A stretch of DNA of 64,000 nt, from NCBI RefSeq assembly GCF_044324875.1, contig NZ_CP172185.1; one strand, written 5' to 3'. Made by a program: the position numbers and the translations under genes. The notes under the pieces were generated by a model that was given only the letters and a program-made list of their open reading frames with translations, was not told where the DNA came from and searched no databases. Below, one piece after another: positions 1 to 54,373 of the stretch (the first letter of the stretch is position 1; each line of letters starts with the position of its first letter). The DNA comes from Escherichia coli (lineage in GTDB: Bacteria; Pseudomonadota; Gammaproteobacteria; Enterobacterales; Enterobacteriaceae).

Positions 1-740
1 TATGTAGCACCTAACGTAAATTCGTTACTTCTGACATCAACAGAGGATTTATATGTATCCTGCCCGTCTTCATACGTCAGGGTTGAATCACCTGCATCAA
101 GATAGCGATAAGCAAGGTCAAGACTGAAATCCGGGGTGACCTCATATTTCACGCCAACACCAAGGCTCCATGCGAAATTGTTATCATATCCCGAGTAATG
201 TAATGAAGAAGCATCACTTACTTCACCTGATTTATTCCAGGAGGTATCGGTGTATGTTGCCTTATGATGTACCCGCGCATAACCCAGTCCGGCTGATACC
301 CACGGAGTGAAAGCACTGCTGTTTCTGAAATCATAATACGTGTTCACCATCAGGGTATTCACGCTGAGCCTGTTTTGTGTGTCTTCCTTCCAACCATTAT
401 CTCCAGACGGGGACTCCCATGTATCCAGTGGATAGCGGGAATTCGCAGAGCCGCGACCATAGAATTCAACTTCCGTGCGTACAGGGACATTGTAGTGCTG
501 ATAAAAGTCGTATCCCACCGCAAGGCCAGCACCAAAAACCGTATCGCTCTTGTCACCGCCTTTATACTTATAAACATCATCCCCAAAGTCCTGACTAAAG
601 CGCTGATTATCCTGAGTGATAACAGATGCACCAGCCTTACCCGTGATATAGAAACCGGTTTTATCCGCATCTGCCAGCGTCAGCGTTGAAAACGTACCGG
701 TAAGCGCAGCTACCGCAGTGAGTGCCAGTAACTTTTTCAC
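1..740 (-). CDS. outer-membrane beta-barrel protein (porin/OmpA-like family), C-terminus cut by window edge
   Basis: Minus-strand frame opens with GTG at 740-738 behind an AGGAGAGG Shine-Dalgarno; N-terminus MKKLLALTAVAALTGTFSTLTLADA is a signal peptide; body is aromatic- and Gly-rich with alternating hydrophobic beta-strand pattern; no stop before position 1. Confidence 0.5.
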   Translation of the reverse strand, partial: MKKLLALTAVAALTGTFSTLTLADADKTGFYITGKAGASVITQDNQRFSQDFGDDVYKYKGGDKSDTVFGAGLAVGYDFYQHYNVPVRTEVEFYGRGSANSRYPLDTWESPSGDNGWKEDTQNRLSVNTLMVNTYYDFRNSSAFTPWVSAGLGYARVHHKATYTDTSWNKSGEVSDASSLHYSGYDNNFAWSLGVGVKYEVTPDFSLDLAYRYLDAGDSTLTYEDGQDTYKSSVDVRSNEFTLGAT

Positions 741-1054
741 AATCCACCTCTCCTGATGTTTCCTTCAGACATATGAATTTGTCCAATTTTAAGACGGATT
801 TCTCATTGGTAAAATGAATTGTACAGATCGTATCGATCGATAAAATCGATCGTTAAGCAGAAAAAAGATTTATCGTCAGCGAAGATTTGTTTATGGAAAT
901 GAGTGAAAAACGGGTTAAAAAACAGACTGTGCTGCTCATGTGAAACGGGAAGTGACGGGATAAGAAGTTATGTGAGGATTGTTACGGGAAATGCTGTTTT
1001 ACGTTGTTAAAATGTAACTCCGCAATGAAACTATTCCCTGTGGAGGTCCTGTAA

Positions 1055-1408
1055 ATGAACAAAGCACTCTCTTCCATTCTGCTCATCTTCGGTATCTGTA
1101 CATCATCACTGGCCGCTGAAAAAAACAGAACCGTCAGTTTTCCACGATGTGAAGGGCAGGAATCATCGGCTGTTGCAGCCAGCGTCAAACGGGACTATCT
1201 CCAGAAACAGGTGCTTCAGTGGAAAGATGACCAGGAAATTCTCGGTCAGCTGCGCCCCGTTGTCTGGGTGAATCTTCGTGAGCCGGTAAATAAAGGTGAT
1301 AATGTCATCACGGTGCATCTCACTGCCCGTGGAAAGAAAGCAGATATTCAGTATCGTGTGCGCGTTGACTGTAAGAACGGAAGTGCTACCTGGCAACGCC
1401 AGGGATGA
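1055..1408 (+). CDS. hypothetical small secreted protein (117 aa)
   Basis: ORF track; GGAGG 8 nt upstream of ATG; N-terminal signal peptide MNKALSSILLIFGICTSSLAA; no family recognised. Confidence 0.5.
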   Translation: MNKALSSILLIFGICTSSLAAEKNRTVSFPRCEGQESSAVAASVKRDYLQKQVLQWKDDQEILGQLRPVVWVNLREPVNKGDNVITVHLTARGKKADIQYRVRVDCKNGSATWQRQG

Positions 1409-1454
1409 ACGGGTGAAGTTGAATACAGAGCCCGAACGAACAGGCTCTCCATAC

Positions 1455-1929
1455 TCATCGTATATAACTGAATGCGGTGATGACGTGTTTCACCCCCGCC
1501 ACGCGACTGGCGATATCAGCAGCAGCCTGTCCTTCCTTCTCTGTAACTCTCCCCATAAGAAAGACTTCACCATTCTCCGTCAGTACCTTTACATCTGACA
1601 GTTTCACCCTGCTGCTCTTCAGTAACTGTGCCCGGATTTTTGTGGTCAGCCACGCATCAGTAGCTGTTTTATCAGCCCGAAGTGGTTTTCCCGTCCTTAT
1701 TTCATTCCATACCTGCACAGTCCCCTCAACACCATCTGCAATCTGACGGGCTTTTTCACCTGCACTACGGTCTGGTGCCTGCCCTGTCAGCAGTACAGTG
1801 CCCTGGTATGCTGTGACGATGATTCGCGCATCCCCCCTGAGTTGTGAGTCCTTCGACAGCGCACGGCTGACCCTTGCTTCCAGAATTTCATCATCAATCT
1901 GCGTTCCCGCACTTCGGGGGTCCACTGAC
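1455..1929 (-). pseudogene. BON-domain (OsmY/YraP-like) protein, 5-prime end replaced by IS21-family terminus
   Basis: ORF 1455..2015 has two BON-like segments; its first ~29 codons are encoded by the IS terminal repeats (1930-2015), so the native N-terminus and signal peptide are missing. Confidence 0.5.
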
Positions 1930-2050
1930 TGCAAAATGGCATCTGAATCGATCGCAGTTTGGCATTCGAATCGATCATGATTTGGCATCCATCTCCGATC
2001 ACAGTTTGGCATCACAATCGATCACGATTTGGCATGCTTCCGATCATTGA
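1930..2050 (+). repeat. IS21-family left-end multiple terminal repeats
   Basis: Five tandem copies of a ~20-bp unit (TTTGGCAT..CGATCG..GAT variants) between 1930 and 2050; typical IstA binding sites of IS21-family ends. Confidence 0.6.
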
Positions 2051-2131
2051 TTGGCATCCTGCCAGTCACTCCGGGAATTAACTCTTTTCACCACAGTCTC
2101 CATTGCCGTGTTTAAACCAGTGGAGACGTCA

Positions 2132-3697
2132 ATGTCCAGAAAGAGAAAATCCAGGAGCACTATGGAAACCTGTTTTAAGATCCTTCAGCTCAAGTTCGAC
2201 AAGAAGCTGACTAACCGTTGTATCGGACTGACGTTACACATCAGCGCCTCAACCGTTTTTGAGGTTCTTGCCCGCTTCAAAGCCTCTTCTCTGTCATGGC
2301 CATTACCTGCTGATATATCCCATGACACGCTGGAGAAACTCATTTTTCCGCCCAAAGACACCTTTGCATCAGAGCTTGTAATGCCTGACATGTTGTACTT
2401 CGATACGGAAATGAGAAAACCAGGTGTGACGCGGCAACTGTTGTGGATGGAATACAAGGCACAGGCGGGTAACAAAGCGATGGGATACTCGCACTTCTGC
2501 CGTTGCTACCGGGAGTGGAAAAAAACGCGACGTCTCTCCATGCGCCAGGAGCATCGTGCCGGCGAAAAGCTTTTTATCGACTTCTGTGGTCCTACGGTTC
2601 CTGTTATTAATCCGGACACCGGTGAGATACGCCGCGTGGCAATCTTCGTGGCCGTAATGGGGGCGTCCAACTATACCTACGTTGAAGCGTGCGAAGGTCA
2701 GGACATGATGTCATGGTTAAATGCCCACAGCCGTTGCCTGACCTTCCTGGGCGGCGTACCGAAGCTGCTCATCCCCGATAACCTCAGAAGCGCAGTGAAA
2801 AAGGCCGATCGATATGAGCCTGTCATCAACGACAGTTATCAGGCACTGGCTGAGCACTATGGCACGGTTATCATCCCGGCCCGACCACGCAAACCTAAAG
2901 ATAAACCAAAAGCAGAAAACGGCGTCCTCATCGTTGAACGATGGCTTCTTGCCCGCATCCGTAATGAAACCTTCCACACGCTCAGGGCGCTGAATGCGCG
3001 CCTTAGGGAGTTACTGACAGACATGAATAACCGGCCAATGAAGGGGTACGGCAATCAAACCCGTGCAGAACGCTTCCGCATACTGGATGCGCCAGCACTC
3101 TCTCCGCTGCCTCTGGCACCTTATGAATACACGGAATACAAAGCTGTGAAGGTTGGCCCTGACTACCACGTTGAATATGCCCGTCACTGGTACTCCGTTC
3201 CACACGAACTGGTCGGTCAGCGTCTGTCACTGAAGGCGGGGCAGTCGGTGGTACAGCTCTGGCACAAGGGGCAGTGTGTGGCGCAACATCCGCGCAGCAC
3301 ACATGAATATAAACACACAACCAATCCGCTTCACATGCCAGAGCGCCACCGGCAGCACGGGACATGGACACCGGAACGCCTGATCGAGCAGGGAAAACGT
3401 ACGGGCCCGTCCACAGGCCGGGTGGTTGAATCCATGCTGAAGGCAAAACCCCATCCGGAACTGGCTTATCGTGCAGTTCTGGGGCTGCTGGCACTTCAGA
3501 AAAAATACGGCCCGGAACGGCTGGAAAAGGCCTGTTACGTTGCCCTGCACTATAACGCCCCTGACAGACGCTTTATCGACAATCTGCTGCGTCACCATCG
3601 GGAGAACCTGGAGCTTCCATTATCCCGCCAGGGCGAACAACATCCGGCATATGCTTCAGAGCATGAAAACCTGCGTGGTCCGGGCTACTACCACTGA
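2132..3697 (+). CDS. istA: IS21-family transposase IstA
   Basis: ORF track 2051..3697; long ORF begins inside the terminal repeats, so the GGAGACG-preceded ATG at 2132 is the more likely start; N-terminal HTH then DDE-type catalytic region; followed by istB. Confidence 0.85.
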   Translation: MSRKRKSRSTMETCFKILQLKFDKKLTNRCIGLTLHISASTVFEVLARFKASSLSWPLPADISHDTLEKLIFPPKDTFASELVMPDMLYFDTEMRKPGVTRQLLWMEYKAQAGNKAMGYSHFCRCYREWKKTRRLSMRQEHRAGEKLFIDFCGPTVPVINPDTGEIRRVAIFVAVMGASNYTYVEACEGQDMMSWLNAHSRCLTFLGGVPKLLIPDNLRSAVKKADRYEPVINDSYQALAEHYGTVIIPARPRKPKDKPKAENGVLIVERWLLARIRNETFHTLRALNARLRELLTDMNNRPMKGYGNQTRAERFRILDAPALSPLPLAPYEYTEYKAVKVGPDYHVEYARHWYSVPHELVGQRLSLKAGQSVVQLWHKGQCVAQHPRSTHEYKHTTNPLHMPERHRQHGTWTPERLIEQGKRTGPSTGRVVESMLKAKPHPELAYRAVLGLLALQKKYGPERLEKACYVALHYNAPDRRFIDNLLRHHRENLELPLSRQGEQHPAYASEHENLRGPGYYH

Positions 3698-3713
3698 CAG
3701 AAGGAACAACAGT

Positions 3714-4469
3714 ATGAGTGATAACCTGTTAAACAAACTGACCCAACTGAAACTCCCGGCGATGGCCGGGAGCCTGATACGGCAGCGGGAAACGCCTCAG
3801 ACCTACGACGAACTGTCGTTCGAGGAAAGGCTGACGCTGCTGGTTGATGACGAGCTTCTGAGCAGGGAAAACAGCCGTGTGGCACGGTTGAGAAAAAATG
3901 CCGGCCTGAAATACCAGGCAACACCGGAAGGGCTGCGCTATCCGGCCTCAAGAGGTCTGCGGGCTGAACAGATGAGAGAACTGCTGAACGGCCACTACAT
4001 AACCCACAGGAAAAACCTGCTGATAACCGGTCCGACAGGATGTGGCAAGAGCTGGATAGCCAATGCGCTGGGCGAACAGGCATGTCGACAGAAACACAGC
4101 GTCCGGTACTGTAGAACCGGGCGATTACTGGAACAACTGGCTCAGGGACGTGTTGATGGCAGCTGGCTGAAATATCTGAAACAGTTGCAAAAAATACAGG
4201 TTCTAATCCTGGACGATCTGGGGCTGGAACAGTTAAGTAACGCCCAGTGTAATGACCTTCTGGAGCTCATAGAGGATCGTTACGGACAAAGCAGCACGAT
4301 AGTGGTAAGCCAGTTCCCGGTAGATAAATGGCATGGTCTGATGGAGAACCCAACAACAGCAGATGCCATCCTGGACAGACTGGTACATAACTCACACCGA
4401 GTGGTCCTTCAGGGAGAGTCACTGAGGAAAAATCCCCCGGTAGTGGAAAGCAGCGAAAAAACGCGTTAA
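3714..4469 (+). CDS. istB: IS21-family helper ATPase IstB
   Basis: Walker A GPTGCGKS, Walker B LILDDLG; start at ATG 3714 (MSDNLLNKL) with SD AAGGAA, not the longer in-frame track ORF 3471..4469. Confidence 0.9.
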   Translation: MSDNLLNKLTQLKLPAMAGSLIRQRETPQTYDELSFEERLTLLVDDELLSRENSRVARLRKNAGLKYQATPEGLRYPASRGLRAEQMRELLNGHYITHRKNLLITGPTGCGKSWIANALGEQACRQKHSVRYCRTGRLLEQLAQGRVDGSWLKYLKQLQKIQVLILDDLGLEQLSNAQCNDLLELIEDRYGQSSTIVVSQFPVDKWHGLMENPTTADAILDRLVHNSHRVVLQGESLRKNPPVVESSEKTR

Positions 4470-4759
4470 AAAGCGGTAGAAAAAGTTAAGTTCCCGGTTG
4501 ATCGAATGGATGCGAATCGCTGATCGGACTTCGATGCCAATCCGTGATCGAATAGAGCGGAATACGCAGGGAACCACACAGGGTATGGACAAACATAATA
4601 ACAATAACAGGATGAAAATATTGAATAAAAAATAAAAACCGAGACATCATCATTTGCAGTAATAGCCACCTCCTTACCGAAAAGTGTGAGTTGCCGGACA
4701 TTTTTTAAACGCATGATAAGGTCTGATGATACAGTCACCCTGCAACCAGGAGGTACATC

Positions 4760-5011
4760 ATGCGTATACGTGTTTTTGGTTACCGGCACTGCCCTTCAGT
4801 CCATCGCATCATGCATCACGCAACGCGAATCCCCGATGAAATGGAACCGGATGTTGTGTTTATTGATGTCGCGAAGCACAGTGTGACGCTGCGGGATATG
4901 GCTGACCGTGCAGGCTGCCCGGTGGATAACTTCCCGTGTGTGTTTGTTGATGATGTGTATCTGGAGCCCCTTCCACCAGAGCCGGGCAAACCGCACTTTA
5001 CATACTGCTGA
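4760..5011 (+). CDS. small thioredoxin/glutaredoxin-fold-like protein (83 aa)
   Basis: Strong SD AGGAGG 7 nt upstream; pattern MRIRVFGY-HCPS ... FPCVFVDDVYL resembles the glutaredoxin/NrdH layout but with the CxxC replaced by HCPS; function uncertain. Confidence 0.35.
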   Translation: MRIRVFGYRHCPSVHRIMHHATRIPDEMEPDVVFIDVAKHSVTLRDMADRAGCPVDNFPCVFVDDVYLEPLPPEPGKPHFTYC

Positions 5012-5178
5012 ATATTTATTACCGGATATGGACAATCGCTTTCATTCGGGATAAAAAATACTGCGCGTTCCTGGTTTATTTTGCGTTGCTGTCATGACGT
5101 GTTTGCCTTCATTGCCGGGATCGCGCACTTTTTGTTATAACTCCCCGGAGGACACTGTCTGTAATCAGATGGAAACCT

Positions 5179-5613
5179 TTATCTCAGTGATGTCCTGGTT
5201 AATACAGAATACTGCCCCGGACCAAGTAACATAATGGCAATCCCCCCCATGAAATACAGCATTTCATTTTCAAGCCCCCACGCCCCTACTTCAGTCAGTG
5301 TGAAAAACTTCCCTGTTCCGACCAGAAGCGTGGCAACAATCAGTGTCAGCGCATAAATCAGAGCAGCAGGTCTGGTAAATATCCCAAGAATGATAAGTAC
5401 CGGAGCCACGATTTCACCAATATACACACCATAGGCAATAAATCCTGGCAAACCAGCATCCTGCAACATTGATATAATCCAGTTGACACCGTGCTCTATT
5501 TTGGCCACACCATGGAACAGCATCAATATACCAAATGTCAGTCTCAGCAACAGAAGACCTGTATCCGGGTAGTCTGTCAGTCTGGTAAAGAACATATTTA
5601 TTCTTGCTGGCAT
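5179..5613 (-). CDS. DoxX-family inner membrane protein
   Basis: 144-aa protein with four hydrophobic helices and DoxX-like motifs (LLLRLTFGILMLFHG, GGIAIMLLGPG). Confidence 0.7.
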   Translation of the reverse strand: MPARINMFFTRLTDYPDTGLLLLRLTFGILMLFHGVAKIEHGVNWIISMLQDAGLPGFIAYGVYIGEIVAPVLIILGIFTRPAALIYALTLIVATLLVGTGKFFTLTEVGAWGLENEMLYFMGGIAIMLLGPGQYSVLTRTSLR

Positions 5614-6198
5614 AAAAAACCTCGTTAAACGATAACAGATAATGAAGAAACTATTATCGTTGAGTCGACACCATCAATTGACCAGATATTTCTGACATTC
5701 ATAATCAAAAAATTTGACAAAACTGTAAACGTTCGCTTTTTATACCAACACAGAATCCACTCAGTCACACAACCTGTATGCGTCATTTCCTGCTGTTATT
5801 TAAAAAATTTCTCACGTAACAGACATTTCAAAAAAACACTAAAAAATACCAGAACAATTAAGATAATATTACGATCAAATAAGTAAAAGTCTTTTGTCTG
5901 TTATTTTTATTTTCTGTGATTACTGTCATTCTTTCACCACTTTAATTAACATCGCATAATAATCCGGGAGGTGGATAAGATATGAAAATTAACTATCCTT
6001 TACTGGCGCTGGCGTTGAATTATTACCTGTAGAGCTCACTCCGGATGAGCAGAAAGAACCGATGGTGGCTCTTACTCCACTTTTATCCACTCCTTCACAC
6101 AGCACTGTCAGTGCAGGTGCCTGAAAGATCTCGTTCCGTCACGGTAAAATGACGCTGGAAAATTCTTCACCAGAACTGCTCACTGTGTTAATTCGTGA

Positions 6199-6372
6199 AC
6201 TGACCTGGGGGGAATGCGTGGTACCCTGCTGTACGGACTAATCGGAACCTGTCGGTTGAACGGTATCGATCCGGAAGCGTATCTGCGCCATATCCTGAAC
6301 GTTCTACCGGAATGGCCTTCCTGCATGGTTGATGAACTCCTGCCATGGAATATGGTGCTCCCATTGGGGTAA
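6199..6372 (+). pseudogene. IS66-family transposase (TnpC) C-terminal remnant
   Basis: Frame reads ...[50 protein letters not shown], matching the conserved C-terminus of the intact TnpC at 8167..9618; GTAAGCG-type end just downstream. Confidence 0.6.
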
Positions 6373-6491
6373 GCGTCAATACGGCGTTCGCTTAACTTAA
6401 CACTTACTTTCAAAGCCTGATATCTGTCCTACGCTTTTCCTCAATACCACATCGCCAGCAGGAAACAACCTAATGCCTGTGTTGGGGTCTG

Positions 6492-6516
6492 AATTACTAA
6501 TGATAATCATTTGCAT
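6492..6516 (+). promoter_or_regulatory. Fur box-like operator upstream of sitA
   Basis: AATTACTAATGATAATCATTTGCATT contains the AATGATAATCATT core of the Fur consensus. Confidence 0.55.
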
Positions 6517-6536
6517 TGTGTATAGCTTATGCTATA

Positions 6537-6558
6537 AAACATAGCCGTTGCTATGTTT
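6537..6558 (+). promoter_or_regulatory. MntR box upstream of sitA
   Basis: Palindrome AAACATAGC-CGTT-GCTATGTTT matches the MntR operator consensus; an adjacent second palindrome TATAGC-TTAT-GCTATA lies at 6521-6536. Confidence 0.6.
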
Positions 6559-6590
6559 GTTCTAATTTTACTCACTATAGGTACTGAATT

Positions 6591-7505
6591 ATGCACTCAA
6601 TAAAAAAAGTAACCATGCTCCTGGGGTGCCTCGCCCTCACCTGCTCGATAGCATTTCAGGCGAGTGCAACTGAAAAATTCAAGGTCATTACAACATTTAC
6701 CATCATCGCAGATATGGCCAAAAACGTGGCTGGAGATGCTGCAGAAGTCTCATCCATAACCAGGCCCGGTGCAGAAATTCATGAGTATCAGCCTACCCCT
6801 GGCGATATTAAACGTGCGCAGGGGGCACAACTGATTCTCGCCAACGGTATGAATCTGGAATTGTGGTTCCAGCGCTTTTACCAGCATCTCAGTGGTGTTC
6901 CAGAAGTGATTGTCTCTTCGGGTGTGACGCCAGTAGGGATCACCGAAGGCCCCTACGAGGGAAAACCTAACCCTCATGCCTGGATGTCGCCAGATAATGC
7001 TTTGATTTACGTCGATAATATTCGTGATGCGTTGATAAAATACGATCCGGCAAATGCAAAAACATACCAACGTAATGCCGATACTTATAAAGCCAAGATT
7101 ACCCAAACCCTTGCCCCCCTGCGTAAGCAGATTGCTGAACTCCCTGAGAATAAAAGATGGATGGTCACCAGTGAAGGGGCTTTTTCTTATCTCGCACGCG
7201 ATTTGGGGCTAAAAGAGCTTTATCTGTGGCCGATAAATGCCGATCAACAAGGAACACCCCAGCAGGTACGTAAAGTGGTTGATATAGTGAAGAAAAATAA
7301 TATCCCAGCGGTATTTAGTGAGAGTACGGTTTCCGATAAACCAGCGCGTCAGGTTGCGCGTGAAACCGGCGCACACTACGGCGGTGTGCTCTATGTCGAT
7401 TCCCTGAGCACAGAAAACGGCCCGGTACCTACGTATATCGACCTTCTGAAGGTTACTACCAGTACGCTGGTGCAGGGAATTAAAGCCGGGAAAAGGGAGA
7501 AGTAA
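6591..7505 (+). CDS. sitA: Mn/Fe ABC transporter periplasmic substrate-binding protein SitA
   Basis: 304 aa with signal peptide; cluster-9 metal-binding SBP fold; followed by a sitB start overlapping the stop (TAATG); Fur and MntR boxes upstream. Confidence 0.85.
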   Translation: MHSIKKVTMLLGCLALTCSIAFQASATEKFKVITTFTIIADMAKNVAGDAAEVSSITRPGAEIHEYQPTPGDIKRAQGAQLILANGMNLELWFQRFYQHLSGVPEVIVSSGVTPVGITEGPYEGKPNPHAWMSPDNALIYVDNIRDALIKYDPANAKTYQRNADTYKAKITQTLAPLRKQIAELPENKRWMVTSEGAFSYLARDLGLKELYLWPINADQQGTPQQVRKVVDIVKKNNIPAVFSESTVSDKPARQVARETGAHYGGVLYVDSLSTENGPVPTYIDLLKVTTSTLVQGIKAGKREK

Positions 7506-7640
7506 TGATGCAATCTGCGGGTATTGTCGTTAATGGCGTTACTGTCACCTAGCGAAACGGGCAGAAAGCACTGCGCGATGCATCCTTCACAGTACCAGGC
7601 GGATCTATTGCCGCTCTGCTTGGGGTAAACGGTTCCGGTG
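7505..7640 (+). pseudogene. sitB: sitB 5-prime fragment (ABC ATPase) with premature stop
   Basis: MMQSAGIVVNGVTVT then TAG, then ...ALRDASFTVPGGSIAALLGVNGSG; homology ends inside the Walker A motif at about 7640; sitCD absent. Confidence 0.65.
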
Positions 7641-7986
7641 AAATCGTCTTGACACGTTTCTGGGCTCGTCATCAGCGGTTGTTGCGAATGATCGCCGCCC
7701 TGCGATGGTTGATTTATTTTATTGCGCCCCGGCGTCTGCCTTGCCAGGTACCGGAGGCGGGCTCTGAAGGACTGAGTAGGGTGAGCGCGTCAGGCCGCGA
7801 AGTACTGACACGGGAGTTTGTGGCAGGCAGTGAAGTCCTGACCAGGGTAAGGGAGGCGCTGACGTGCAGGTCCTGACTGTCAGCCAGGCGCATGGTGACT
7901 GACTTTCTCAATAACCCGCTGTCAGGCGCTCAACGCCCGACAGCAGGCCATGGCCCGGTGTGCAAAGACCTGACGGCAGGTGTTGT

Positions 7987-8127
7987 GTCACCCGGAGAAG
8001 GTAAATCCCTCAAGAGGCAGCAGCTCAGCCAGTCGGTCCTCAGGCCACTCCGGCAGGCGCGTCAGTACGTCCGTCAGCCAGGCATGTGGCTCCAGACCAT
8101 TACGCTTTGCTGTTTCCAGAAGACTCA
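7987..8127 (-). pseudogene. second IS66-family TnpC C-terminal fragment
   Basis: Minus frame MSLLETAKRNGLEPHAWLTDVLTRLPEWPEDRLAELLPLEGFTFSG* parallels the TnpC C-terminus; abuts the end of the complete IS66 element. Confidence 0.5.
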
Positions 8128-27385: not shown

Positions 27386-28246
27386 ATGACGACAGCAACC
27401 AGCCTGAACGAACTACAAAAGCAAATCCGCGATCGCTACGATAGCCTGAGCAAAAGGCTGCAGCAGGTCTCCCGCTATGTACTGGATAATACGAACAGTG
27501 TCGCGTTTGATACGGTTGCGGTCATAGCCGAACGTGCCGATGTTCCACCCTCTACACTGATTCGTTTTGCCAATGCCTTTGACTTCACCGGCTTCAACGA
27601 AATGAAACAGTTATTTCGTATGCACCTGGTGGAGGAAACCGCCAGCTACAGCGATCGTGCGCGACTGTTCCGCGAAATGGAGAGCGAAGCCGTACCTGAA
27701 ACGCCGCTCGATATTTTGCAGGAGTTCGCCAGTTCGAACTCGCAGGCGCTGCAGCAGTTGGCTGCCCGCGCCGAACCGGAGATGCTGGAGCACGCCGTAC
27801 AACTACTGGCCTACGCCGACACCATTTACATCGCCGGATTACGCAGATCCTTTAGCATTGCTGCTTATCTTACCTATGCTTTAAGCCACCTAGAGTGCCG
27901 CCCTATTCTGCTTGACGGGATGGGCGGCATGCTGCGCGAACAGATCAGCCGTATTAAGGCGTGCGACATTGTGGTGTCGATCAGTTTCTCGCCGTACGCG
28001 GAAGAAACGGCGATGGTCAGCAAAACCGCCGCCAGCGTCGGCGCTCGGCAGATTGTGATTACGGATAGCCAGATCAGCCCACTGGCAACGTTCAGTGATC
28101 TCTGCTTTGTGGTGAAAGAGGCTCAGGTGGACGCATTTCGGTCTCAGTCGGCAACATTGTGTCTGGTGCAGTCGTTAGTGGTCGCGCTAGCTTACCGTTT
28201 AGGAGATAAAAAACATAATAATACCCAGGAAAACAGTAACCAATAA
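27386..28246 (+). CDS. iolR: RpiR-family transcriptional repressor IolR
   Basis: 286 aa, N-terminal HTH plus C-terminal SIS domain, divergent from iolA. Confidence 0.8.
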   Translation: MTTATSLNELQKQIRDRYDSLSKRLQQVSRYVLDNTNSVAFDTVAVIAERADVPPSTLIRFANAFDFTGFNEMKQLFRMHLVEETASYSDRARLFREMESEAVPETPLDILQEFASSNSQALQQLAARAEPEMLEHAVQLLAYADTIYIAGLRRSFSIAAYLTYALSHLECRPILLDGMGGMLREQISRIKACDIVVSISFSPYAEETAMVSKTAASVGARQIVITDSQISPLATFSDLCFVVKEAQVDAFRSQSATLCLVQSLVVALAYRLGDKKHNNTQENSNQ

Positions 28247-28354
28247 TAACCAATGAACTCCTCCCCCGAGTCCATATAAGAGTAAATGATTCGGTGCCAG
28301 TAGCGATACAGACTTCAGATTGAATATCAACTGTACTGCTATCTCCCTAAAAGG

Positions 28355-28835
28355 TCATGCCCCATGTGAGCGTACAACGAGAGCCTTAATCCTTAATAGC
28401 GAAGAAGATTTCTCTAGTAGGTGGTAATGTAACCCAGATATAACGGCTTCTTTAAACAGTTTATTTACCATCGTTTTCTTACCTAGCAGGCGCTGAAGTT
28501 CTTTAATTTTATTCATGGCGGCAGCAAGTTCAGAGGCCGGAATACCCTTTTCTTCGGCTGTCACAGTAGTGAAGCTTCCTTCAAGGTAATGATACGCCAG
28601 AGAAATAACGGGCTGACCACCATACCATGTTGCCAGGCAATCAGGAAGACCATCATTCCTGGTTCAAAACTCTGTTGAACAGTAGCGATTTTGCGTGTGT
28701 GATGCGCAGTCTGCGTTTCTCCGATCCTGAGACATCAATCATCTGTTCTATATGAACGCATCCCGTTTGCAAGGCTTTCGTAGTTTTGACATTGACGGTA
28801 GGTTGCAGCTCTATATCCGGCCTTGTTGCAGCCAT
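28355..28835 (-). pseudogene. IS2-like (IS3-family) orfA remnant
   Basis: Track ORF 28355..28564 has ...[33 protein letters not shown], matching the IS2 InsC leucine zipper; upstream fragment 28653..28835 is frameshifted; no orfB. Confidence 0.55.
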
Positions 28836-29020
28836 GAAGCTGCGGGCCCCTATGTAATACGCTGACTCGCGCCTTATTCTCCCAGCGAGCTTTAATCTCC
28901 AGAACAGATTCAGGTTTAGCGAGTCCCGGTCTTACCTGTCGTTGTCATCACTACGGCTGCCCACGCAACCTTTCAGCATTCACCTTTTTGTAAAGAGTTT
29001 ATGTTTATCGGTATCAGCGA

Positions 29021-29791
29021 TTAATAAGGCCTGATACTGACATGATTTTTGTCGTATTTACGTCCGTGAGCGGCTATTGCCCACACCGTTCGCGCCAGCT
29101 TGTTTGCCATTGCGACGATTGCCACGCTGGCCGGACGACGTTTTTTCAGTTCGGTTATCCACGGCCCAGGTTCTTTGGTCAGTAATGCTGCCGCCCTTGC
29201 ACCATGAATAAACAGGGTTCGCAGATATTTATCACCACGTTTGCTTATTCCCAGCAGGCGGATTTTTCCTCCTGAGCCTGTCTGTCTGGGCACCAGACCA
29301 ACATAAGCCGCGAACTCTCGCCCTGATTTAAACACTGATGCTTTCCCCATGATGGCCAACGCTGCCGTTGCAATAAGTGGCCCAACGCCAGGAATATCCA
29401 GCAACCGTCTACAGGTTTCATTCTGTCTCGCCACACTGGTAAGCTGTTTTTCTATATCATCTATCAGTGAGTCCAGTTCATTCAGCCTGTAGTACTGATT
29501 TTCCAGCACTGTAATGAGATACAGTGGCAGTCTCTCTTTCATCCGCTCCAGTGCTTCAGGGAACTCCCGTTCCATCGCTGCCCGACCTTTGTGGATGGTT
29601 TCACCAAACTCCAGTAACGTCCCGTGCAGGGCATTAATTTGCGCGGTCCGGAACTTCACCAGTTGTCTGCGGGAACGGTGCAGAACCAGTATTGACTGTT
29701 GTTCTTCTGTTTTGACGGCGATTTCTTTGCCTGGCTGCTGTACCGCCATCCAGATAGCTCGCGCATCCATCACGTCATTCTTATTGCCCAT
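29021..29791 (-). pseudogene. IS110-family transposase, N-terminally truncated by IS629
   Basis: 256-aa ORF matches the C-terminal two-thirds of IS110/IS1111-type transposases; N-terminal domain missing, IS629 end at 29817. Confidence 0.65.
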
Positions 29792-29857
29792 GACGAATGC
29801 TTTAACGAAGCGAGCTGAACCGCCCCGGGTTTCCTGGAGAGTGTTTTATCTGTGAAC

Positions 29858-32237
<2,380 letters not shown>

Positions 32238-32242
32238 GCAAA

Positions 32243-32707
32243 CACATCAATGATGAACGCCACATAGACGACCCCCTCCCATGTGCTGACGTAAGTAAAA
32301 TCAGCCACCCACAACTGGTCAGGACGTTCTGCCACAAACTGACGGTTTACGCGGTCGCCTGCGGCAACGGCTTTCCGGCTGACGGTAGTGCGGACCTTTT
32401 TACCCCGGAGAACACCGGCAAGTCCCATAACCGCCATGAGGCGCGCCACTGTACATCTGGCTACCCTGATTCCTTCCCGTAACAACTGACGCCAGACTTT
32501 ACGCACACCGTATACCTGATGATTCCCATCGTATACGCGCAGTATCTCTTTCTTCAGCCAGTCATCGCGCTGCGCACGGGCACTGCGTTTATAAGGATGA
32601 TGTCGCTGTTGCTGACAGTGGTAATACGTTGACGGGGCAATATGTAGTTCACTGCATACCGGTCCGACCCCGTACAGCTTACGCAGCTTATCCAGCAGTG
32701 GCATCAC
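32243..32707 (-). pseudogene. IS629 orfB, N-terminal part
   Basis: Identical to OrfB residues 1-154 of copy 2, then runs into the IS100 end. Confidence 0.8.
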
Positions 32708-33030
32708 TTTTTCCAGAGGCGGTCGAACTCCGCCTTCGCAAAATAAGCGGAAGCCTGGCGAAGGATATCGTTACTGCGGCGCAGTTCACGATTTTCACGT
32801 TCCAGCTCTTTCAGACGCTGACGTTCAGCGGTGGTGAGCCCGCCATCACCGCCTCCGGTATCCCGCTCATGCTGGCGTACCCAGACACGCAGAGTCTCCG
32901 GTGTACAGCCAATCTTTGGGGCAATGGAACAAATTGCCGCCCACTGTGAGTCATATTCGCCCTGACTTTCCAGAACCATACGAATCGCCCTCTGACGGAC
33001 TTCGGGGGAAAAACGAGTATTTTTAGTCAT
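32704..33030 (-). CDS. IS629 OrfA
   Basis: 108 aa, identical to copy 2 OrfA (38056..38382). Confidence 0.85.
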
Positions 33031-33083
33031 TCTGTTTACCTCTTTCTCAGGGAGTTTAGTCTCCAGGATTCCCGGGGCGGTTC

Positions 33084-33448
33084 ACGGGAGCCAGGACCTT
33101 AAAATAACTACTTACAGGCTGTTGTATTCCAGCTGGTAATACGATTTCTGCACTGTCAACAAACGGAATGCCGTCTTTAAAGTCTGCCCTGTCATTAGCC
33201 TCATTGAGAATGAAATCGACTAGAACAGGCTCTTCGTTCACCAGTCCTTGATGGTTAAGAAATTTGACGTAAAGTTTAAGTGTATTGCTGACGGGATAAA
33301 TTTTTCCAAGAGCATTGGTAACAACATGGGCTGCGGTGAGAATCTTTTGCTGCTGACCATTATCGAAACCAAACGCAGTTGCTTCGAGATGGCTACTAAA
33401 ATGAGGATCATTGCTTACATAGATTTTACAAACGTAGTTTTCAAACAT
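33084..33448 (-). pseudogene. S1 (trypsin-like) protease-like gene, 3-prime end cut by IS629
   Basis: N-terminal 120 aa with catalytic-His motif ILTAAHVV; reading frame continues into the IS629 inverted repeat. Confidence 0.4.
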
Positions 33449-53006: not shown

Positions 53007-53601
53007 CCCGTTGTAAAGTGAGGATATGGACACCTCACTTGCTCATGAGAACGCCCGCCTGCGGGCACTGTTGCAGACGCAACAGGACACCATCCGCCAG
53101 ATGGCTGAATACAACCGCCTGCTCTCACAGCGGGTGGCGGCTTATGCTTCCGAAATCAACCGGCTGAAGGCGCTGGTTGCGAAACTGCAACGTATGCAGT
53201 TCGGTAAAAGCTCAGAAAAACTTCGTGCAAAAACCGAACGGCAGATACAGGAAGCACAGGAGCGAATCAGCGCACTTCAGGAAGAAATGGCGGAAACGCT
53301 GGGTGAGCAATATGACCCGGTACTGCCATCCGCCCTGCGCCAGTCTTCAGCCCGTAAACCGTTACCGGCCTCACTTCCCCGTGAAACCCGGGTTATCCGG
53401 CCGGAAGAGGAATGCTGTCCTGCCTGTGGTGGTGAACTCAGTTCTCTGGGATGTGATGTGTCAGAGCAACTGGAGCTTATCAGCAGCGCCTTTAAGGTTA
53501 TCTGCGTATTCCGCTCTATTCGATCACGGATTGGCATCGAAGTCCGATCAGCGATTCGCATCCATTCGATCAACCGGGAACTTAACTTTTTCTACCGCTT
53601 T

Positions 53602-54357
53602 TTAACGCGTTTTTTCGCTGCTTTCCACTACCGGGGGATTTTTCCTCAGTGACTCTCCCTGAAGGACCACTCGGTGTGAGTTATGTACCAGTCTGTCCAG
53701 GATGGCATCTGCTGTTGTTGGGTTCTCCATCAGACCATGCCATTTATCTACCGGGAACTGGCTTACCACTATCGTGCTGCTTTGTCCGTAACGATCCTCT
53801 ATGAGCTCCAGAAGGTCATTACACTGGGCGTTACTTAACTGTTCCAGCCCCAGATCGTCCAGGATTAGAACCTGTATTTTTTGCAACTGTTTCAGATATT
53901 TCAGCCAGCTGCCATCAACACGTCCCTGAGCCAGTTGTTCCAGTAATCGCCCGGTTCTACAGTACCGGACGCTGTGTTTCTGTCGACATGCCTGTTCGCC
54001 CAGCGCATTGGCTATCCAGCTCTTGCCACATCCTGTCGGACCGGTTATCAGCAGGTTTTTCCTGTGGGTTATGTAGTGGCCGTTCAGCAGTTCTCTCATC
54101 TGTTCAGCCCGCAGACCTCTTGAGGCCGGATAGCGCAGCCCTTCCGGTGTTGCCTGGTATTTCAGGCCGGCATTTTTTCTCAACCGTGCCACACGGCTGT
54201 TTTCCCTGCTCAGAAGCTCGTCATCAACCAGCAGCGTCAGCCTTTCCTCGAACGACAGTTCGTCGTAGGTCTGAGGCGTTTCCCGCTGCCGTATCAGGCT
54301 CCCGGCCATCGCCGGGAGTTTCAGTTGGGTCAGTTTGTTTAACAGGTTATCACTCAT
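53602..54357 (-). CDS. istB: IS21-family IstB
   Basis: Identical to 3714..4469. Confidence 0.9.
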   Translation of the reverse strand: MSDNLLNKLTQLKLPAMAGSLIRQRETPQTYDELSFEERLTLLVDDELLSRENSRVARLRKNAGLKYQATPEGLRYPASRGLRAEQMRELLNGHYITHRKNLLITGPTGCGKSWIANALGEQACRQKHSVRYCRTGRLLEQLAQGRVDGSWLKYLKQLQKIQVLILDDLGLEQLSNAQCNDLLELIEDRYGQSSTIVVSQFPVDKWHGLMENPTTADAILDRLVHNSHRVVLQGESLRKNPPVVESSEKTR

Positions 54358-54373
54358 ACTGTTGTTCCTTCTG

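Follow-up and report, generated by a model that had tools for sequence, protein, structure and literature searches.

What is the protease-like fragment that lies against an insertion sequence in a 64,000-nucleotide stretch of Escherichia coli DNA (contig NZ_CP172185.1; hereafter, the window), and what was lost along with the rest of its gene? A preliminary description of this locus had proposed a trypsin-like protease gene cut by IS629, and had suggested that it was left over either from a secreted protease or from a defense or toxin module that an IS-mediated deletion had removed. We find that the fragment is very probably a pseudogene of an S1 protease, truncated at an IS629-type element, whose intact counterpart sits in a Bunzi-linked cassette on IncHI2 plasmids.

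The minus-strand open reading frame (ORF) at 33448..33056 encodes 130 amino acids, and comparison with the plasmid gene described below resolves it into two parts. Residues 1-121 are native and correspond to 33448..33086, and the first base of codon 122 is at 33085; the native part, 121 of 218 codons plus 1 nt from the 5' end of the protease gene, hence occupies 33085..33448 on the minus strand. The last nine codons, VNRPGNPGD, and the stop codon (33056..33084, minus strand) are read from the left inverted repeat of the IS, as would be seen if the 3' part of the gene had been replaced by the element, which is what had been claimed. The IS3-family element to the left of the ORF terminates with TGAACCGCCCCGGGAATCCTGGAGAC... 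at 33084; this end (TGAACCGCCCCGGGAATCC...) begins at 33084, and the 33084/33085 junction sets the left inverted repeat against the first base of codon 122. The true start of the fragment is 33085, and position 33084, given earlier, is the last base of the IS. In sister strains, RefSeq annotates the chimeric 130-aa ORF as hypothetical protein WP_225103086.1.

Does an intact version of the gene exist? A tblastn search for intact homologues and their neighborhoods had been proposed as the way to find out, and it proved productive. In a megablast search of complete E. coli genomes, eleven large plasmids carried the window DNA as part of a complete gene for a 218-aa protein. The intact gene encodes WP_000462754.1, a "trypsin-like serine protease" in RefSeq, on R478-type IncHI2 plasmids, where it lies in the accessory region adjoining the ter (tellurite) cluster. 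tblastn against PLSDB placed the gene on 471 plasmids, among them the IncHI2 prototype R478 (NC_005211). Residues 1-121 of the fragment are identical in amino acid sequence to the N terminus of the 218-aa protein on plasmid pMRGN207, and the DNA is 99.5% identical to the plasmid copy over 991 nt.

Against the Pfam Trypsin family (PF00089), the fragment alone scored 14.3 bits, under the cutoff of 20.6, and its motif therefore needed outside support. Perhaps the TAAHV match was fortuitous and no homologue would have an S1 protease fold? The full-length homologue scored 27.1 bits against the same family, over the cutoff. In an alignment of 22 homologues, H41, D98, and G175-C-S-G-G-P180, which contains the catalytic Ser177, are invariant; a PDB profile search aligned this GCSGGP (S177) to the GDSGGP of plasma kallikrein. 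The invariant H41 lies within ILTAAHVV (residues 36-43 of the fragment), and the reading of that stretch as the catalytic-histidine motif is borne out. An AlphaFold2 model of the intact protein (pLDDT 84, pTM 0.83) has the double beta-barrel chymotrypsin fold. Searched with Foldseek against the PDB, it matched 688 chains (E<=1e-3), with MarP and members of the Deg/HtrA family at the top; these leading matches (Rv3671c/MarP, DegS/DegP/HtrA, and plant Deg2/9) had a probability of 1.0 and TM scores of 0.55-0.6. The HtrA/DegS/DegP proteases and Mycobacterium tuberculosis MarP (Rv3671c), the best structural matches, share the double beta-barrel and the His-Asp-Ser order of the plasmid protease. However, HtrA/DegP/MarP are only 13-22% identical to it, a match at the level of the fold, and the plasmid protease, unlike these proteins, lacks a signal peptide, a PDZ domain, and transmembrane domains.

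These structural relatives bear on whether the fragment might be what remains of a secreted or periplasmic protease, such as an HtrA/DegP-like enzyme or an exported virulence protease. The nearest solved structures do include periplasmic HtrA-family proteases and MarP, and the window itself encodes a genuine secreted S6 protease, a SPATE-type autotransporter of 1,291 aa (57745-61620, minus strand; Peptidase_S6, 5.6e-92). The N terminus of the intact protein is nonetheless unlike a signal peptide: within the first ~30 residues the top 12-residue Kyte-Doolittle score is 0.53, with no signal-peptide-like segment, and the AlphaFold2 model confidently places residues 6-12 in a beta-strand of the first barrel. 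PDZ, transmembrane, and autotransporter domains are absent, and the structural matches do not extend beyond the fold. A hidden Markov model (HMM) search of 1.84 billion representative proteins returned only 17 relatives, all of them single-domain proteins of ~200-220 aa or fragments thereof. We conclude that the protease is cytoplasmic and not secreted, and consider a secreted origin highly improbable; this part of the preliminary description has to be given up. The family, which comprises 24 clusters, is confined to mobile elements of Enterobacterales and Vibrio, and in these searches it appears as a rare, sequence-isolated offshoot of the S1 fold. NCBIfam had no match to the protease. An anti-defense protein might be expected to have phage-encoded homologues, but tblastn against 50,697 phage records gave no match, and the three protease loci in IMG/VR all lie at contig ends. 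Among known defense families, PADLOC offered the protease itself only a sub-threshold LmuA match (0.0063, with no passing stretch), and we rejected this candidate.

Could the truncated protein still do something? The native part of the window copy ends at residue 121 and so spans approximately the first barrel of the pair. It retains His41 and Asp98 and lacks the GCSGGP serine (Ser177), leaving the His-Asp-Ser triad incomplete; since the serine and the second barrel are missing, the window copy should be incapable of protease activity. A different kind of function for the 130-aa product might be imagined, with the N-terminal beta-barrel acting as a decoy, an inhibitor, or a regulator. Its start and upstream region are intact, residues 1-121 match the plasmid gene at 100% amino acid identity with no further disabling mutations, and the same allele is kept in several strains. 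However, with one half of the two-barrel S1 fold missing, the remainder would probably not fold by itself. Recent capture accounts for the match to the plasmid copy (99.5% nucleotide identity), and common descent of the entire IS-flanked island accounts for the persistence of the allele; another 92 nt are gone from one strain, HCM-27C-1. We give a functional product very little credence. The fragment most likely does nothing and, as far as its sequence can tell, is a pseudogene of a small cytoplasmic single-domain S1 (PA clan) protease, a member of S1 by descent and not a functional enzyme.

We then asked what kind of element ends the gene, and how. The element is 1,310 bp long and of the IS3 family, with orfA and orfB, and it is present twice in the window. 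Copy 1 (29816..33084, minus strand) is split into 29816-30283 and 32238-33084 by a nested 1,954-bp IS21-family element (30284..32237, plus strand; istA at 30370-31392, istB at 31389-32171), which lies in its orfB and has TGTCA... terminal inverted repeats and a 5-bp duplication, GCAAA. Copy 2 (38002..39311, plus strand) is intact at 1,310 bp, ends with TGAACCGCCCCGG..., and lies in a vWA/TerF-like gene upstream of the ter cluster. Both copies contain the ALIL frameshift pseudoknot (Rfam, 116 bits). RefSeq labels the element "IS3 family transposase, programmed frameshift," and no tool annotation names it; from its ends and its OrfA sequence, we take it to be IS629.

Simple insertions of IS629 make 3-4-bp target-site duplications (PMC3271280), and the element is known for gene inactivation and for deletions (PMC9943667). 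Copy 2 fits the former pattern, with a 3-bp duplication (AAT/AAT) at its flanks. The flanks of copy 1, read on the minus strand, are CCG and GCT, with no target-site duplication. Was the protease gene nevertheless interrupted by a plain insertion, with no DNA lost and the 3' half waiting beyond the IS? IS629 often interrupts genes in this way, as copy 2 has done with the vWA gene. But on its far side copy 1 abuts a truncated IS110-family transposase gene (29021..29815, minus strand), followed by the iol (myo-inositol) island; this flank is unrelated to the protease locus, and the two flanks of the IS are therefore of different origin. The protease 3' half and the plasmid DNA that follows it (positions 1-8000 of R478-type locus L001), downstream genes included, have no match anywhere in the 64-kb window, which refutes the plain insertion there; moreover, none of 5,426 complete E. 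coli genomes has IS629 at the same site with the 3' half kept. We regard a plain insertion as scarcely credible. Unlike flanks and the missing 3' half thus point to an adjacent deletion or to recombination between IS copies, and the lack of a duplication at copy 1 would mark such a rearrangement or deletion, rather than a failure of the element to be IS629-type.

The sequence of events can be proposed as follows. A ter segment derived from an IncHI2 plasmid was captured into the chromosome. The DNA past codon 121 is gone, and with it the catalytic serine, both Bunzi-like genes, hipBA, and sequence beyond; IS629 probably removed it by an adjacent deletion or by recombining with a second copy of itself. 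Copy 1 was later struck by the IS21-family element. IS629-mediated gene inactivation and deletions in E. coli, O157:H7 for instance (PMC3271280, PMC9943667, PMC3064760), offer a parallel: here too there is a 1,310-bp IS3-family element within a ter-carrying island, of which copy 2 is a simple insertion with its 3-bp duplication and copy 1 has lost adjacent DNA and has no duplication. Unlike the O157:H7 cases, the present one involves an IncHI2-type segment captured by a non-O157 chromosome; the strains are mostly of chicken origin, and the IS was itself hit by a second IS.

What, then, was removed? On pMRGN207 and R478-type plasmids, the intact protease gene is followed on the same strand by genes for a 165-189-aa glycine-rich membrane protein and a 462-aa protein and then by hipBA. 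PADLOC identifies the 462-aa protein as BnzB (6.5e-53). The membrane protein matches BnzA weakly (4.2e-6) and only in the membrane-spanning middle of the model, at HMM positions ~272-414 of 544 (PADLOC match, 301-414); the region N terminal to HMM position ~270 is missing, and Pfam detects no TerB domain in the protein. Bunzi is an anti-phage system with experimental support and an unknown mechanism, whose BnzA is described as bearing TerB and transmembrane segments (Millman et al. 2022, 10.1101/2022.05.11.491447). A canonical locus, on Lactococcus plasmid pLG50, encodes a BnzA of 549 aa (1e-127, full length) and a BnzB of 511 aa (4e-152). The R478-type locus keeps the A-then-B order found on pLG50, and its BnzB match is strong; in contrast to the canonical BnzA of ~545 aa with TerB, its BnzA-like protein corresponds to the middle part alone, and the canonical system has no protease gene. 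The plasmid cassette hence looks like a TerB-less relative of Bunzi. The BnzB-like protein was modeled poorly by AlphaFold2 (pLDDT 68, pTM 0.49), and Foldseek returned nothing for it at E<=1e-3, with no PDB match. We found no paper linking IncHI2 with a trypsin-like protease and nothing mechanistic in the literature on "BnzB."

The genes for BnzA-like and BnzB-like proteins are both absent from the window and present only beside the intact protease gene; hipBA is missing from the window as well. The suggestion that a defense or toxin module had been removed by an IS-mediated deletion thus agrees with what follows the protease on the plasmids, and its deletion part with the missing duplication at copy 1. 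The intact cassette is a candidate membrane-acting, abortive-infection-type defense module related to Bunzi. Among IncHI2 backbones, the three genes form a 3.3-kb segment that is present or absent as a block; in a second IncHI2 lineage (261 E. coli plasmids), the whole 3.3-kb block is missing between hipB and a hairpin element. The ~336 nt of noncoding DNA upstream of the protease start (33449..33784, minus strand) belong to this segment.

Is the protease a working part of the module or only its neighbor? The three genes occur together in five contexts: two IncHI2-type plasmids, a Klebsiella P4-like island, a Yersinia integrative and conjugative element (ICE), and a Klebsiella chromosome near umuDC. 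Homology among these cassettes runs from ~8 nt before the protease ATG to just past the bnzB-like stop codon. The three genes have broadly comparable dS values (0.38-0.72 for the protease, 0.56-0.66 for bnzA-like, and 0.27-0.58 for bnzB-like), whereas dN/dS in the plasmid and island loci (L001 and L009-L012) is 0.27-0.49 for the protease versus 0.04-0.23 for its bnzA- and bnzB-like partners. A Citrobacter plasmid shares its bnzAB-like genes with R478-type plasmids at 98-100% DNA identity, yet DNA identity falls to 52-78% across the protease block (54% in amino acids); the breakpoint of this allele swap lies ~100 nt upstream of the bnzA-like start, so that bnzAB may have a promoter of its own. 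The dN/dS of the protease and the pattern of allele swapping are typical of an arms-race component or of relaxed constraint.

The protease is also found without the pair, and the pair without the protease. Seven other contexts have a homologue (49-61% identity) that stands alone. Several are defense hot spots: on a Vibrio ICE, the gene is located between genes for Mrr and for Gabija-like OLD/UvrD, and a Serratia P4-like island has it with DUF3800/DUF4365. These stand-alone loci share no conserved small partner gene or flank beyond 67-340 nt of clade-specific upstream sequence. Conversely, a short-BnzA/BnzB pair occurs without the protease in all three of the more distant loci examined, and BnzB-like proteins form more than 345 clusters versus 24 for the protease.

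How should these observations be weighed? The protease could be an independent single-gene module of mobile elements (for defense, for anti-defense, or housekeeping-like) that merely adjoins the Bunzi-like pair in a single accessory slot, in which case two unrelated neighbors, and not one system, were lost from the window. The solitary homologues, the pairs that lack a protease, and the confinement of the allele swap to the protease block all favor this reading, as would a promoter-like site inside the 3' end of the protease gene, ahead of the bnzA-like gene, except that our promoter and terminator scans gave no signal above shuffle expectation. Against it, at least four unrelated backbones have acquired the three genes jointly and with the same boundaries, the genes come and go as a block in IncHI2 and have broadly comparable dS values, and no terminator-like site separates the protease from the bnzA-like gene. 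We consider independence a serious contender, though one that we would not favor. We put the chance at about even that the protease belongs to the Bunzi-like cassette as an accessory gene, loosely coupled and exchangeable. From linkage only, it is a putative functional member, and a fast-evolving, swappable protease would then be an accessory sensing or activating component of the cassette. In either case, the statement that a module was removed by an IS-mediated deletion still holds.

A more specific possibility is that the 3.3-kb R478-type block is an undescribed three-gene variant of Bunzi, in which BnzA lacks its TerB N terminus and the S1 protease is the phage-sensing or effector-activating part. 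We think this rather unlikely. If it is true, the cassette could also add to the classical phage-inhibition phenotype of IncHI2 plasmids, and the window would hold only the scar of such a system.

Bacterial gasdermin systems offer a point of comparison, for there membrane effectors are activated by adjacent trypsin-like or caspase-like proteases. In both systems a protease gene lies directly upstream of genes for membrane-associated proteins in a mobile, defense-type locus. The BnzA-like and BnzB-like proteins, however, have no sequence or structural similarity to gasdermins, and their cleavage is purely hypothetical.

The one lead of wider interest lies outside the window, in the uncharacterized protease and TerB-less Bunzi cassette of R478-type plasmids. 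The intact gene represents a very small, sequence-isolated cytoplasmic S1 family on plasmids, ICEs, and P4-like islands. One clade of this family is tightly linked to the TerB-less Bunzi-like pair, and the presence of a protease-linked variant on R478, a tractable and well-studied plasmid, would make it a testable entry point.

When did the truncation arise? The same protease/IS junction and 130-aa chimeric ORF are present in the chromosomes of Br_112_kylling and PK-F-10122, which are chicken-associated; in TUM9803, the fragment and the iol-side flank are matched at equal spacing. Of these strains and HCM-27C-1, most are from chickens. In Br_112_kylling the IS carries a group II intron and no IS21-family element, and other sister strains have an uninterrupted IS629. 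Since sister strains differ in these secondary IS and intron insertions, the truncation is older than those events and was inherited. The ter type of the window matches ter-type 2 of PMC8193136, which that study located on IncHI2 plasmids and, often, in chicken isolates. Within the window there is an unremarkable pseudogene made by an IS, in an IncHI2-derived ter island that ISs have heavily remodeled; the pseudogene marks where the captured ter segment was trimmed, and is useful as a lineage marker for a mostly poultry-associated group of E. coli.

Several other elements were observed near the fragment. At 33783-34039 lies a 257-nt element with perfect 19-nt inverted arms (AATTGCATGTCCTCATCCC), which as single-stranded DNA folds into a long imperfect hairpin (-54.9 kcal/mol, z = -5.5). 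It is single copy, it is 90-95% conserved on the 261 E. coli IncHI2-type plasmids, and one of its arms is the exact edge of the 3.3-kb protease/Bunzi-like indel. The element has no Rfam match and might be a single-strand promoter, an initiation signal, or a recombination site. The 19-nt inverted repeat had raised the idea of a retron or another noncoding RNA upstream of the protease. We rejected this candidate: when 28000-40000 was scanned against Rfam by E-value, the two IS3 ALIL pseudoknots were the sole hits, and there is no reverse transcriptase nearby.

A 152-164-nt indel relative to R478-type plasmids, part of which some plasmids share, lies at 34076-34227. Three direct copies of AAGTTATGTCACTA at 34085-34158 stand upstream of a conserved 130/143-aa ORF (34269-34700, minus strand) that matches no family; these copies look like operator or iteron sites. 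At ~35246-35253, ~4.1 kb of the R478-type plasmid (L001 10008-14108) is missing from the window, encoding a 328-aa hypothetical protein and a UvrD-like helicase, which are possibly another defense pair. The second IncHI2 lineage lacks this stretch too, which suggests that it is a further slot for variable accessory genes.

Toward the right end of the window, the SPATE-type autotransporter and an AbgT-family transporter (61932-63491, minus strand) are unrelated to the protease fragment. Finally, inverted, 99.9%-identical copies of a 2,648-bp IS21-family element, which encodes a 548-aa IstA-like protein with a Mu-transposase C-terminal domain and a 332-aa IstB, are located at 1928-4575 and 53496-56143. 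The second copy splits an IS66 tnpC gene. Together the two copies bracket ~49 kb that includes the iol and ter islands, and they have the potential for large inversions.
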